Assembly: GCF_003334335.1 (NCBI RefSeq)
Contig: NZ_QOWQ01000038.1
Source of the DNA: Escherichia coli
Lineage (GTDB): Bacteria > Pseudomonadota > Gammaproteobacteria > Enterobacterales > Enterobacteriaceae
Length of the DNA stretch: 40,690 bases
Direction: 5' to 3' (one strand)
Of the stretch, positions 29,213-34,942 are shown one piece after another (within the stretch, counting starts at the first letter, position 1; every line of letters begins with the position of its first letter). The position numbers and the translations under genes were made by a program. The notes beneath the pieces were generated by a model that was given only the letters and a program-made list of their open reading frames with translations, was not told where the DNA came from and ran no database searches.

Positions 29213-29220
29213 TCCCTCAC

Positions 29221-29242
29221 GCCGGGGCTTCATCGCCCCGGC
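29221..29242 (+). terminator. Operon-end hairpin after sgbE
   Basis: Perfect 8-bp GC stem gccggggc-ttcatc-gccccggc, 9 nt after the sgbE stop. Not followed by a strong U-tract. Confidence 0.45.
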
Positions 29243-29558
29243 ACTACGAATTGATATGTTCCTTGCTGTAACGCCGCTTCCACGCTGCTGGCGTTAAACC
29301 AGTATGTTTCTGAAAAATCTGCCGGAAATAGCCAACGTCATTAAACCGTATTGCATGGAGCAGGCCGACAACGTCGAGTCACTGCATAACCTGTTGCTGC
29401 CCGCCGATGCGCCATTTACGACATTTGAAGGCAAGGGATTGTTCAGCCATAAGATCCTGATTCAGACGCCAGGTTCCCGGTATGAACAGAGCAATCCAGA
29501 GCAACAACCTTTGTGGCATTACGACGGAGCACCAGCCGCACCGACATCCACCGGTGAA

Positions 29559-30299
29559 TTAAAAACGCCAGCTCACCCCGGTGACAAAGGTAAAACTCTC
29601 ATTACGATCAATCATCGGGCTGTCGGTAATCTCTTCCGGCAGCTCGCTGTATCCTGCGCTCGCCATCAATACGACGTGCTCTCCTATCGGGTATTTTGCC
29701 GTCAGGCTGACATAGGGCACCCAGGCATCCTGCGCGGAATAACTTGCCAGACCGCTACGACGGGACTCACTCTCTGAAATGCCATAGTAATAGTCACTGA
29801 AATTCTCGTCATAATAGAGAACGCCCAGCGCAGGTGTCAGCGACAGACGACCTATCTGCATTTTGTGGAATACCGATAGCTCCCCCACCCAGCCGTTGCT
29901 GTTATCCAGAACGTCCGCAGCTGCAGAGGCTTTCACGGTTCCCCAACGCTCGTGGTGATACCAGGCAACCCCCGCCATAGCCGTACTATCACGCTTATCA
30001 AGCTGTTGCATGGCATAATCGTCATTATCGGTAGGGTCAAATTCCAGCGGCATCCAGGATGCGGTCAGGCTAAGTTCATTTTTTTCACTTTGCGACAGAA
30101 TAAAACCTAACGTGGTCTGACGAACATAAAAAGTATCACCTTCATAACTAATCAGCGGAATTGCCTTCGTATTTTCATTATAACCGCGATAAGGCGATTC
30201 ATTATAAGCCGCACCAGCACCAATGGATAATTCAGAAGCAGTTGCGCTTGCCATAAAAGGCAACGCAAATAACGCCACAATATTGCGATTAATTAACAT
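29559..30299 (-). CDS. yiaT: MipA/OmpV-family outer membrane protein
   Basis: 246 aa, signal peptide (MLINRNIVALFALPFMASA), beta-barrel-like alternating pattern, C-terminal aromatic residue (..SWRF). Confidence 0.88.
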   Translation of the reverse strand: MLINRNIVALFALPFMASATASELSIGAGAAYNESPYRGYNENTKAIPLISYEGDTFYVRQTTLGFILSQSEKNELSLTASWMPLEFDPTDNDDYAMQQLDKRDSTAMAGVAWYHHERWGTVKASAAADVLDNSNGWVGELSVFHKMQIGRLSLTPALGVLYYDENFSDYYYGISESESRRSGLASYSAQDAWVPYVSLTAKYPIGEHVVLMASAGYSELPEEITDSPMIDRNESFTFVTGVSWRF

Positions 30300-30422
30300 G
30301 TCCGGTATTCCATTTTAAAATAAGATAAAAAAGAGTCGGCATAATAATGCTTACAATTTCTCCGGTGCAAGATTCATATTTATATAGTAATATATAAAAT
30401 TATATATAATTGGGCTGTTGCG

Positions 30423-31397
30423 ATGACAAAATTACAACTTAAGTACCGGGAGTTAAAAATTATCTCGGTAATCGCTGCCAGTGAAAATATCAGCCATGCC
30501 GCGACTGTACTTGGCATCGCACAGGCCAACGTCAGCAAATATCTTGCTGATTTTGAATCAAAAGTGGGTTTAAAAGTCTTTGACCGAACCACCCGGCAGC
30601 TGATGCTCACACCTTTTGGCACCGCGCTGTTACCGTACATCAACGACATGCTGGACAGAAACGAGCAACTTAATAATTTTATTGCAGATTATAAGCATGA
30701 GAAACGTGGTCGGGTCACCATCTACGCCCCAACCGGCATAATTACCTATTTATCCAAACATGTAATCGATAAAATTAAAGATATCGGTGATATCACCTTA
30801 TCGCTAAAAACCTGCAATCTTGAGCGTAATGCCTTTTATGAAGGCGTCGAATTTCCTGATGATTGTGATGTTTTAATCAGCTACGCTCCACCAAAAGATG
30901 AATCGCTGGTTGCCAGTTTTATTACCCAATATGCCGTAACCGCTTATGCCAGCCAGCGCTATCTTGAGAAACATCCCATTAGCCGTCCTGACGAACTCGA
31001 ACATCACTCCTGTATTTTGATCGACTCGATGATGATCGACGACGCGAATATCTGGCGCTTCAACGTCGCCGGGAGTAAAGAGGTGCGGGATTATCGCGTG
31101 AAGGGAAATTACGTTTGCGACAACACGCAATCTGCGCTGGAGCTGGCACGAAATCACCTGGGGATTGTGTTTGCGCCAGACAAAAGTGTGCAGAGCGACC
31201 TGCAAGACGGCACGCTGGTGCCCTGCTTTCAGCAACCCTATGAATGGTGGCTGGATCTGGTGGCTATCTTCCGTAAACGGGAATACCAGCCCTGGCGGGT
31301 CCAGTATGTGCTGGATGAAATGCTGCGTGAAATTCGCCACCAGCTTGCTCAGTCGCAGCAACTGCGGCCTGAACAAGCGGCGGAAAGCGAAGATTAA
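30423..31397 (+). CDS. yiaU: LysR-type transcriptional regulator
   Basis: 324 aa, N-terminal LysR HTH ([28 protein letters not shown]). Divergent from yiaT. Stop codon overlaps the yiaV stop. Confidence 0.9.
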
Positions 31398-32530
31398 TGA
31401 TCGAGATAAAGGTAATGCACCCAGCTGTTCATGCGTAATAGCACTTTGCGCATCACCGAGACATGGCTGAAATGATCAGAGTAAACCGCCACCTGGGCGT
31501 AAATACCGTCTGGTAAAGCGCTCAAATCAGTGTGCTCATCCAGTTCAATGGTCGCGATAACGCCATCTGAACCCGGCGCTGTGTTTAACGTCTGTAAGGT
31601 GCCGGTCGACTGATAAGCTCCGCCGGGAACGGCTGGACTAATGGCTGCCAGCTTACCGCTGAATACCTTACCTGGCAGAGCATTAAACACCACTTCCGCA
31701 TCGTCGCCAGGAGCCAGTCGCAGCAAGGAGTTCTGACGGAACTGCGCCACGATTTGTCGTTTCTGATCGGGTATAAACACCATCACCGGACGTAGCGGCA
31801 GCGACGCGGCATAGGTACCCGGACGAATCAGTACCTGGGTCACATAACCATCGCTCGGCGCACGCACTATCGTCTGCTCAAGGTTATATTTTGCTTCCGC
31901 GAGCTGTGCTTTCAGGCTGGCGATTTGAGAATGTTCACCCAACACCAGGCTATCCAGCTGGCTCTGGATCTGTTTTTGTTCCGCCGCCGATGACTTCACG
32001 GAGGCTTCCTGCGCCAGATAATTTTGCCGCGCCACATCGATATCGCGTTCTGAAAACGGGTTTACTTTCGCCTGGCTGCCACGTGCGTAACGCTGATACT
32101 CTTTAGCGAATTTATCCCGCGTGGCCTTTGCCTGCTGAGTATTCGCCGCCATCTCATCTAACTCTGCGCCCAACGCCCGCTGTTTATGTTCTGCGGTAAC
32201 GATATCCGCCATCAGCCGATCCACCCGCGCCTGATAACGCGTCGGGTCCAGTCGAAATAGCACCTCACCTTTTTTAATCAGCGTATTTTTCTTATCCGTC
32301 ACTTCAATCACCACACCAGTCACCTGTGGGACAACAGGAATAGAAATAACCGCTTTTTGCGCTTTAAAGGTATACGGATGGTTATAGTTCATTAACAGAA
32401 TTAGACCGCTGACAATAAATATTCCACCCAGGGCCGCTGTGGGAATGGTCCATTTATTTACGGGAATTTTGAAGATCTTAAACATTGCCCATGCAAAAGC
32501 CACATAGGTCAAAATAATCAGTAAATCCAT
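31394..32530 (-). CDS. yiaV: HlyD/EmrA-family membrane fusion (periplasmic adaptor) protein
   Basis: 378 aa: N-terminal TM helix, long coiled-coil segment ([32 protein letters not shown]...), C-terminal beta domain. Confidence 0.9.
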
Positions 32531-32535
32531 AAGTA

Positions 32536-32859
32536 TTACTCGGCAGAAGAGGATTTGATGTCGGCGAGCTGTTTCTCCAGCCCGGCAATGCGCTGTTGCA
32601 GTTGCATAACGGATGAATCATGGCTTTGCATTCCCCATCCCCGCTCCGGGCGGTAAAGCGTGGCCCAAATCCACAAAAACGGCCAGATAACATGTAACGT
32701 AAAAAGACTCACCCAACCAGCAACATGAATGGCGTCGGCATGAGGATGATTACGTTTTTTGGCAATCAGGTAGGGAATATCATGTAAAATAATGATCCCA
32801 TAGAAGATCACCAGAAATACAAAAATAAGCACTCCCAGTGCAAAATAGTCCAGGAACAT
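32536..32859 (-). CDS. yiaW: Small inner membrane protein (DUF3302), YiaW
   Basis: ORF-track frame 32536..32889. Start placed at the internal ATG ([10 protein letters not shown]...) preceded by a GAGGG Shine-Dalgarno, giving 107 aa. Lies 5 nt upstream of yiaV. Confidence 0.8.
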
Positions 32860-33041
32860 ATTTCCCTCAAAGAATATAAAAAAGAACAATTAACGCATAT
32901 TATGAAATGCCATGATGCAGTGCAATTTCCTTATTTATATAACGACATATTGTTTTTTATATACTTTCTTAAATGTGCTGTCTGGTTTTTCAACAGGACG
33001 AGGTTTATCATATTGAAATAGTGGAACTATTGGCCAAACTA

Positions 33042-33185
33042 ATGAATAACTCCAGTAAAACATCCACAGTACAGATTAAGCGTATTAAACCTTCAATTAT
33101 CTACCGTTTATTGCTGATTGGCCTCGGATCACCAATGGTGATTTACGGCCTGGTTCGCCCGCTCACCATCGAAACGCGAGATTAA
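33042..33185 (+). other. Candidate small ORF (47 aa from ATG 33042, 70 aa from ATG 32973) with one hydrophobic helix; unverified
   Basis: MNNSSKTSTVQIKRIKPSIIYRLLLIGLGSPMVIYGLVRPLTIETRD. No convincing Shine-Dalgarno upstream of any in-frame start. Confidence 0.2.
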
Positions 33186-33290
33186 ACTCCTGACAAAACA
33201 CGCCCCAGAAACGTACTTCTGTTGGCGTAGTCTGGGTTATTGCGCACGTAGGTTTAAAACGTAAATTGTAACAACGTGCGCTTTGTTTAT

Positions 33291-33372
33291 GCCGGATGCG
33301 GCGTGTACGCCTTATCCGGCCTACGGTCAGGTTCCCGTAGGCATGATAAGACGCGTAAGCGTCGCATCAGGC
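33291..33372. repeat. BIME: two inverted REP elements downstream of aldB
   Basis: gccggatgcggcgtgtacgccttatccggcctac (33291-33324) and gtaggcatgataagacgcgtaagcgtcgcatcaggc (33337-33372). Confidence 0.65.
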
Positions 33373-33403
33373 AATGAATACCCAATGCGACCAGCTTCTT
33401 ATA

Positions 33404-34942
33404 TCAGAACAGCCCCAACGGTTTATCCGAGTAGCTCACCAGCAGGCACTTGGTTTGCTGGTAATGCTCCAGCATCATCTTGTGGGTTTCGCGACCGATA
33501 CCTGATTGTTTGTAGCCACCAAACGCCGCATGTGCCGGGTAAGCGTGATAACAGTTGGTCCACACGCGCCCAGCCTGTATGCCGCGCCCCATCTTATAGG
33601 CCAGATTACCGTTGCGGCTCCAGACGCCCGCGCCCAGGCCATATTGCGTATCGTTCGCCAGCTCCAGCGCTTCTTCCATCGTTTTGAAGGTGGTCACCGC
33701 CAGCACCGGGCCAAAAATCTCCTCCTGGAACACCCGCATATTGTTCTGACCAAACAGAATCGTCGGTTCGAGGTAGTAGCCGTCTTTCAGTTCACCTTCC
33801 AGCAGCTTGCGCCGCCCGCCTGTGAGCACGTCAGCGCCCTCTTTTTTACCGATATCAATGTAGTTGAGGATGGTTTCCAGTTGCCCGTGAGAAACCTGCG
33901 CGCCCATTTGCGTCACGCTGTCGAGCGGGTTACCGCTACGAATGCTTTCGACACGGCGGATGGCGCGTTCCATAAAGCGTTCGTAGATAGATTCCTGCAC
34001 TAAAGCACGACTCGGACAGGTGCAAACTTCGCCCTGGTTAAAGGCAAACAGTGCAAAGCCTTCCAGCGCTTTATCGAAAAAGGCATCTTCTTCATCCATC
34101 ACATCAGCAAAGAAGATATTTGGCGACTTACCGCCCAACTCCAGCGTCACCGGAATAATGTTTTGCGTTGCGTATTGCATAATTTGTTGGCCCACTTCCG
34201 TTGAGCCGGTAAACGCCACTTTGGCGATGCGTTTCGAGGTCGCCAGATATTCGCCAATTACCCCACCTGCGCCATTGACCACGTTCACCACGCCCGGCGG
34301 CAGTAAATCACCGACAATTTCCATTAGCAGCAGTACAGAAAGCGGGGTAAGACGTGCGGGTTTCAGCACCACACAGTTGCCCGCCGCCAGCGCGGGAGCC
34401 ATTTTCCAGCTCGCCATCAGCAGCGGGAAGTTCCACGGGATAATCTGCCCCACCACGCCTAACGGTTCATGGAAATGATAGGCCACGGTTTCGCTATCAA
34501 CTTCACTGATCCCACCTTCCTGCGCCCGAATACACGAGGCGAAATAGCGGAAATGGTCAATCGCCAGCGGTACATCCGCAGCACTGGTTTCGCGAATGGG
34601 TTTGCCGTTATCCCAGGTTTCAGCTGTCGCTAACAGCTCGAGGTTTTGTTCCATTCGATCGGCAATCTTAAACAGAATCGCCGCACGATCCTGCACCGAG
34701 GTGTGCGCCCATTTATCTTTCACTTTGTGCGCAGCATCCAGCGCCAGATCGATGTCTCGTTTGCCCGAAGACGCCACTTCGCACAGCAGCTGCCCGGTCA
34801 CCGGCGTCAGATTCTGGTAATACTCGCCGTCGGCAGGGGCTACCCATTCGCCGCCAATAAAGTTGTCATAGCGGGCTTTTAACTTGAGGGGGAAACCATA
34901 CTCGCCGGGCTTAATCTGTGCTGAAGGGGGATTATTGGTCAT
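33404..34942 (-). CDS. aldB: Aldehyde dehydrogenase B (NADP-dependent)
   Basis: ORF-track frame 33404..35080. Start placed at the ATG giving [22 protein letters not shown]... (512 aa). Confidence 0.93.

Follow-up and report, generated by a model that had tools for sequence, protein, structure and literature searches.

In Corynebacterineae, the class A PBP1a has a two-helix membrane cofactor, CofA, whose domain is DUF3566; for CofA of Corynebacterium and Mycobacterium, an interaction with a class A PBP through the latter's transmembrane domain is described (PMC7205459). For yiaWV of Escherichia coli, a sigma-70 promoter with the arrangement CAGACA-17-TATAAA and an H-NS flag has been published from genomic SELEX (Shimada et al. 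2014, PMC3946193). In the same region of the chromosome lie ysaC and ysaD (29244-29540), two annotated pseudogenes that are short leftovers, produced by deletion, of genes intact in other E. coli. Of the two, ysaD (29349-29540) could be identified: it matches residues 559-621 of a GH127 glycoside hydrolase with 87% identity, and an intact GH127 gene lies with an MFS transporter gene between sgbE and yiaT in other E. coli. Among the small proteins validated in E. coli, many are membrane peptides of the single-pass type.

We analysed a 40,690-nucleotide stretch of E. coli DNA (the window), which corresponds to MG1655 positions 3721570-3762259 with mismatches at 15 of the 40,690 positions and so stems from a K-12-like strain very closely related to the reference, not from MG1655 itself; coordinates given here are those of the window. 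According to the MG1655 annotation, yiaW (32536-32859) and aldB (33404-34942), both on the minus strand, flank a gap without any annotated feature. Counted from the yiaW ATG (32859) to the aldB stop (33404), the gap spans 544 nt (32860-33403), and comparison with the MG1655 annotation confirmed that it is the largest intergenic stretch of the window. The original prediction had given a gap of 514 bp from 32890; the gap is real, and that border belongs to a TTG-extended yiaW ORF, not to the annotated start. The GC content of the gap is 0.41 overall and 0.30 in its left 182 nt. A placement of the K-12 pseudogenes ysaC and ysaD inside this gap was rejected, as both lie between sgbE and yiaT. We think it likely that the gap is a decayed locus. 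Because ysaD is a GH127 fragment, there is gene debris at both ends of the yiaT-yiaW segment. The remnant between yiaW and aldB differs from ysaC and ysaD in being unannotated in MG1655, and it is unusual beside them in that its deletion is internal and in frame, with start and stop kept.

The plus-strand ORF predicted at 32973-33185 is indeed present, with 70 codons, and the C-terminal 47 amino acids of its product carry a single hydrophobic helix (residues 19-41; Kyte-Doolittle 19-residue mean up to 1.71). These 47 codons (33042-33185, plus strand; MNNSSKTSTVQIKRIKPSIIYRLLLIGLGSPMVIYGLVRPLTIETRD), which we aligned with full-length alleles from other strains, form a remnant ORF that retains the basic N-tail, most of helix 1 and the last nine residues of an ancestral protein of ~104 aa. 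Two alternative in-frame starts of the remnant, GTG 33021 and TTG 33030, give products of 54 and 51 aa. In most E. coli, PGAP names 33042-33185 hypothetical protein WP_001066080.1; the MG1655 annotation has no CDS there, though short ORFs, for instance baxL with 8 codons, are listed in it. A full-text literature search with the MG1655 coordinates of the locus returned unrelated numbers only, and a preprint on the Enterobacteriaceae microproteome mentions neither gene. The other 23 codons of the 70-aa ORF (32973-33041, plus strand) are an upstream in-frame extension outside the conserved protein. The 70-codon extent is not meaningful, because the family aligns from ATG 33042, the extension does not stay open in strains L026-L029, where it has a stop or a 1-nt deletion, and its ATG at 32973, which is GTG in most haplotypes, lies inside or overlaps the -35 element of the published yiaWV promoter.

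Reading of the sequence bore out the prediction that no in-frame start (ATG 32973, GTG 33021, TTG 33030 or ATG 33042) is preceded by a Shine-Dalgarno sequence. In Citrobacter and Franconibacter the gene has one (GGGAA, AGGAG); the corresponding bases are GGCCAA in every Escherichia allele, whether long or short. Since the constrained full-length alleles of Escherichia also do without one, its absence is no argument against translation and does not tell functional alleles from non-functional ones.

Pairwise and multiple DNA alignments showed that the window lacks exactly 171 nt (57 codons, 39-95), in frame, when compared with long alleles (L007, L010, L011, L014 and L032). The long form occurs in E. 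whittamii, in Escherichia sp. E1V33 and, as detected with a probe for the deleted segment, in 28 of 5,426 complete E. coli genomes. The missing segment, bounded by GGCCTGGTT and AGCCTGGTC, is flanked by short direct repeats (GCCTGGTT/GCCTGGTC), an 11-nt imperfect repeat with GCCTGGT(T/C) in both copies. Full-length alleles read GCCTGGTTTGC ... 171 nt ... GCCTGGTCCGC at this place, and the deletion junction of the window (33148-33158, plus strand) is the merged direct repeat, GCCTGGTT followed by CGC. The long protein accordingly reads ...MVIYGLV[CGVLG...LWLYSLV]RPLTIETRD, where brackets mark the part absent from the window. A word-indexed protein search returned Escherichia relatives only, some of them forms of 104-127 aa with the 57 extra residues. 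The window ORF is 82-100% identical with the matching part of the long alleles, and nucleotide identity outside the deletion is ~95% or higher as judged by eye from the alignment. With the segment go the hairpin, the second helix and the GLWxYS motif, including five of the six positions that are invariant or near-invariant in the family alignment (G46, G59, G88, L89 and W90); G27 remains.

The deleted form is the majority allele. An 80-nt probe spanning the short junction matched at least 3,218 of the 5,426 genomes (at least 59%), and a 701-nt regional probe was covered to at least 80% in 3,788 of the 5,426. About 30% of strains are without the locus altogether. In these remaining genomes, the whole yiaT-yiaW segment is missing or replaced, with the order sgbE/araD-aldB or MFS-GH127(-hicBA)-aldB. 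That many strains do without the segment suggests that it is dispensable.

An exhaustive HMMER search with the long form returned 164 cluster representatives at E<=1e-3 (best E, 1.6e-33), most of them 95-125 aa long and aligned to query residues ~31-124. The best match, a 104-aa protein from a Citrobacter cluster with 57% identity, aligned from query residue 24. As family members align from query residue ~24-31, the conserved protein starts at ATG 33042. The window ORF shares the N-tail and helix 1 of the family, with the pattern (R/K)(I/L)xxxS(I/L)(Y/F)(K/R)LxxIGL..., and it also shares the position convergent with aldB that is found in three genera, Escherichia, Citrobacter and Franconibacter. 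It does not have the family core, that is, the FG...WN(D/G)xxxxG hairpin, the second long helix and GLWxYS. Because the core residues lie within the 57 missing codons, the window copy is a truncated derivative and not a full family member. Thus, the remnant has the same position, start (MNN...), N-tail, helix 1 and last nine residues as the full-length protein next to aldB, and differs from it in the absence of codons 39-95 and in the relaxed constraint on the codons it retains.

We scanned loci for orthologues with a profile of seven close sequences. Orthologues adjoined aldB convergently in E. whittamii, Escherichia sp. E1V33, Citrobacter amalonaticus, C. sedlakii, C. farmeri, Franconibacter helveticus and F. 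pulveris, and the neighbour on the opposite side of the long orthologues varied (yiaW, GH127 or avtA). Full-length examples in E. coli are WP_001064341.1 and WP_001064340.1 (EC42405, 6409). The dN/dS of the long alleles was 0.09-0.29 over the whole gene, with values of 0.07-0.16 for the deleted core and of 0-0.06 for helix 1. The full-length form is a real gene under purifying selection. An AlphaFold2 model of the long form, built on a 55-sequence alignment, had a mean pLDDT of 85.8 and consisted of a helix (17-44), a hairpin (50-57) and a second helix (59-95). Because the long form occurs in other Escherichia, in Citrobacter and in Franconibacter, always beside aldB, and because the deleted segment is conserved across the 164-representative family, we regard the long form as ancestral.

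Pfam gave nothing usable for the 127-aa form, 55 family members and 20 longer relatives, NCBIfam and PDB sequences gave no match for the long-form family, and PHROGs gave weak matches only, to a generic membrane-protein family. The neighbourhoods of three distant family members had no conserved partner gene and so offered no functional clue. As in DUF3566/CofA, the full-length model is a two-helix membrane protein of ~100 residues; a Foldseek search of AFDB50 gave neighbours (TM-score about 0.8) that are mostly uncharacterised proteins of ~100 aa, many of them named 'DUF3566 domain-containing protein', and one Franconibacter orthologue bears the DUF3566 name in UniRef. The enterobacterial family differs from DUF3566/CofA in having no gyrA-linked context, and the DUF3566 model of Pfam-A was unmatched even at E<=0.1 by P0050, the 55 family members and the 20 longer relatives. 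In view of this result with the DUF3566 HMM, the resemblance is a lead and not a membership.

The original prediction had left three readings for the ORF, namely a small protein, a gene remnant or a chance frame. The remnant reading stood, as an allele of a conserved gene with 171 nt deleted, and the 164-representative family disposed of chance. The latter reading would hold that the frame arose by accident in AT-rich regulatory DNA and owes its conservation to the yiaWV promoter and to binding of H-NS or another regulator, and the left part of the gap does have features that would suit it. Besides the GC content of 30%, the published yiaWV promoter with its H-NS flag maps here, to 32984-32956 on the minus strand (-35, 32984-32979; -10, 32961-32956), as a unique match in the window where 0 are expected; this placement is consistent with the prediction that the left part of the gap holds the yiaW promoter. 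A consensus scan placed a second promoter-like site, also on the minus strand, inside the ORF (33036 to 33007). A four-sequence alignment further showed a conserved non-coding block of ~45 nt (32920-32964; GTGCAATT...TATTTATATAnCGnCATATnGTTTTnTATATAC), nearly invariant between Escherichia and Citrobacter amalonaticus. However, that block ends at 32964, upstream of the 47-codon frame, and the retained codons are collinear and in frame with the protein family (E down to 1.6e-33) as well as with syntenic full-length genes in three genera. For 33042-33185, the deletion alignment, the family homology and the synteny refute a chance origin; it is valid only for the extension at 32973-33041. We therefore regard chance as an extremely improbable explanation of the ORF, and take the 47-codon frame to be a gene remnant.

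The conserved block at 32920-32964 is probably a divergent control region that serves both the small membrane-protein gene and yiaW. Within it is an AT-rich dyad (ATAT-AACGAC-ATAT), and the dyad block may be a candidate site for YiaU, the adjacent LysR-type regulator, or for H-NS. No plus-strand promoter for the ORF emerged from a consensus scan, which is too crude for this result to count as absence. In E. coli BDSF8-3 (L041, locus 394-1091), the gap is interrupted in its left part by an IS1A, which leaves the 47-aa ORF intact; the yiaW CDS annotated in this strain has a 5' end that is 21 nt shorter.

A synonymous-substitution analysis, which the original prediction had proposed as a check, was carried out on the codons kept by both forms (15-38 and the last nine). 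Five long alleles from three species had one non-synonymous and ten synonymous variable sites, with a mean pN/pS of 0.05. Six short E. coli alleles had five non-synonymous (G27V, T30S, T30I, R39C and D47E) and four synonymous variable sites, with a mean pN/pS of 0.46; alleles on both sides are few and non-independent. The difference in variable-site counts between long and short alleles gave a Fisher p of 0.05 from a small sample of alleles that are not phylogenetically independent. G27V in the short alleles hits a near-invariant position. These counts indicate relaxed constraint on the short form, and with a pN/pS below 1 some residual constraint on it may remain.

The remnant is likely to be non-functional, as judged from its sequence and alleles, and is probably not a working small protein. 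The competing view is that the deleted allele still encodes a working single-pass inner-membrane peptide of 47-54 residues, which would perform the ancestral role in part or a new one with its basic N-tail in the cytoplasm and one helix, for instance by modulating some larger membrane protein. In its favour, the product would be of a type common among small proteins validated in E. coli, the control block upstream is conserved, and the frame is open with its ATG conserved in 8 of 8 diverse short haplotypes examined, which is weakly informative at a divergence of <=5%. The allele's presence in at least 59% of complete E. coli genomes could be taken further, as the majority state of the species could reflect a selective advantage, and a pN/pS of 0.46 is not clearly neutral. 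Weighing against a working peptide, the whole second helix and five of the six near-invariant residues are gone, and non-synonymous changes, G27V among them, build up in the helix that was retained. Rare variants of the short allele are frameshifted or fused (P0013, P0019, P0031, P0045 and P0047), about 30% of strains manage without the locus, and MG1655 leaves the frame unannotated despite listing baxL with its 8 codons. On balance, we consider a working peptide unlikely and a non-functional relic the better reading. In a separate case, P0071 from a 374-nt contig of Escherichia sp. R-CC3, the short ORF (to ...PLTIET) is fused in frame with the C-terminal 80 residues of AldB; this fusion is probably an assembly or annotation artefact of the very short contig.

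Variation at the junction bears on whether the deletion is one inherited event. The junction codon (33156-33158) is CGC (Arg), as in the right-hand repeat copy, in K-12, L026 and L028, and TGC (Cys), as in the left-hand copy, in L023-L025, L027 and L029. Moreover, short 5' haplotypes mirror different long ones; MIKNRK, for instance, occurs in L007 (long) and L029 (short). Since CGC and TGC represent the two repeat copies and the 5' haplotypes mirror different long haplotypes, recombination between alleles or recurrent deletion is suggested, and the short allele might have arisen repeatedly by slippage at the 11-nt imperfect repeat, which would then be a mutational hot spot. Against repeated origins, a 12-nt loss in the downstream hicB scrap is common to all sampled short alleles, the two short alleles aligned downstream both have a 12-nt REP linker, and sampled short-allele gaps are all 563-564 nt long. 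This common loss, common short linker and common gap length favour one founding haplotype that later diversified through a C/T substitution and through recombination. We consider a recurrent origin rather improbable and prefer the single founding haplotype.

Downstream of the ORF, alignments with strains that have an intact hicBA identified a 3' remnant of the antitoxin gene hicB, its last 23 codons (33182-33253, minus strand; TYVRNNPDYANRSTFLGRVLSGV*), with a stop that overlaps the ORF stop. Intact hicB occupies the same position in L007, L010-L013, L015, L030 and L031. The remnant matches it with 98% identity over 49 nt (blastn) and at E=4e-9 over HicB residues 110-136 (tblastn), and has an internal deletion of 12 nt (four codons) near 33204/33205. 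Unlike the hicBA type II toxin-antitoxin module, the window has these 23 codons, with four deleted, and no hicA; of HicB, with its HicB_lk_antitox domain, residues ~110-136 minus four are left. As hicA is absent and the HicB domain incomplete, the window has no functional hicBA module. In place of the rest of hicB-hicA lies a spacer (33254-33290) common to all aligned strains that lack hicBA (the window, L027, L014 and L032). Strains with intact hicB also have a perfect 7-bp inverted repeat (GCCCGGC aatacac GCCGGGC) after the ORF stop, within the 3' end of hicB (6384-6420 in L011); in the window, at 33186-33210, substitutions and the 12-nt deletion have destroyed it.

Two REP copies in inverted orientation were expected in the gap and are present there, as recognised from their inverted-repeat arms and by reading the sequence. 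Copy 1 (33291-33324, plus strand; GCCGGATGCGGCGTGTACGCCTTATCCGGCCTAC) and copy 2 (33337-33373; TGCCTGATGCGACGCTTACGCGTCTTATCATGCCTAC when read on the minus strand) stand tail to tail with a linker of 12 nt (33325-33336) between them, immediately past the aldB stop. This linker varies in length among strains, measuring 12 nt in the window and 31 nt in the long-allele strains L014 and L032. The pair consists of imperfect ~35-nt palindromes with a conserved head and a CCTAC tail, inverted, extragenic and multi-copy: the 701-nt probe matched 3 places in the median E. coli genome and as many as 14 in others. Rfam returned sub-threshold matches only, to the REP-derived naRNA4 model at three overlapping positions. 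With heads of the form GCC(G/T)GATGCG, CCTAC tails and a place in the 3' region of convergent genes, the pair is a BIME, and nothing about it is unusual.

Three layouts of the interval between the membrane-protein gene and aldB can be read as a decay series, in an order that we infer. The first, long ORF - hicB - hicA - aldB, is found in L011-L013, L015, L030, L031 and E1V33. In the second (L014 and L032), the long ORF is followed by the hicB scrap, the spacer, the REP pair with its 31-nt linker and aldB; E. whittamii has the long ORF and a 27-codon hicB scrap, and then aldB. The third is that of the window, which has 171 nt fewer in the ORF, 12 nt fewer in the hicB scrap and 19 nt fewer in the REP linker than the second.

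In E. coli, the stretch from sgbE to aldB as a whole (window ~29213-33403, compared with L003, L004, L005, L007, L011 and L014) is a structural-variation hot spot with at least five layouts: nothing between the two genes; MFS-GH127; MFS-GH127-hicBA; MFS-GH127-yiaTUVW-ORF-hicBA; and the K-12 state. One strain has an extra gene with an HSDR_N domain between hicA and aldB, and in some strains a Fic-family gene stands in place of the neighbour of yiaY.

From these comparisons, which show the deletions, the ancestry and the synteny, a course of decay can be proposed. The starting point would have been a gene for an inner-membrane protein of ~104 residues, convergent with aldB. From an N-tail that was basic, its product probably ran through helix 1, a short WN(D/G)xxxHG hairpin and a long helix 2 with GLWxYS at its end to an RPL tail; in ancestral Escherichia, hicBA would have separated this gene from aldB. 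In the branch that gave rise to most E. coli, the window included, hicBA would then have been lost except for the last 23 codons of hicB, with a REP pair in its space. Next, the 171 nt between the copies of GCCTGGT(T/C) would have been lost, most likely by replication slippage or short-homology recombination. The hicB scrap would also have become 12 nt shorter than in the long-allele strains that lack hicBA, and the REP linker, which is 19 nt shorter than theirs, may have shrunk here or grown there. As the 47-codon frame has one helix and is without the conserved core, the ancestral function is presumably gone and the frame drifting. Transcription from the shared AT-rich control region, if followed by translation, would give a single-pass peptide that is probably inert. 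The REP pair most likely serves the aldB transcript as such pairs usually do, as a structure that stabilises or terminates its 3' end, and the left third of the gap would carry the yiaWV promoter.

A far-reaching reading, which we consider quite improbable, is that the 47-54-residue allele, fixed in most E. coli and expressed from the conserved divergent control region shared with yiaWV, would be a new single-pass membrane small protein, which would then document how in-frame truncation of a larger membrane protein can give rise to a small one. A separate part of this reading is that the ancestral family would be the proteobacterial counterpart of actinobacterial CofA, the PBP cofactor. Gene decay at this locus is ordinary, and its value lies in annotation and as a cautionary example. 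The seemingly empty gap that is the largest of this region in K-12 holds an unannotated, internally deleted gene and a fragment of hicB, and the 47-aa 'hypothetical protein' that PGAP lists in thousands of E. coli genomes would more aptly be called a truncated allele. For small-protein discovery, this is a warning that a membrane-like frame of 47 codons, open from start to stop and common to most strains, can be a relic of deletion. The analysis also defines an uncharacterised, widely distributed family of ~100-residue membrane proteins under purifying selection; rare E. coli keep its gene intact and thus provide a natural pair of full-length and deleted alleles for functional tests.
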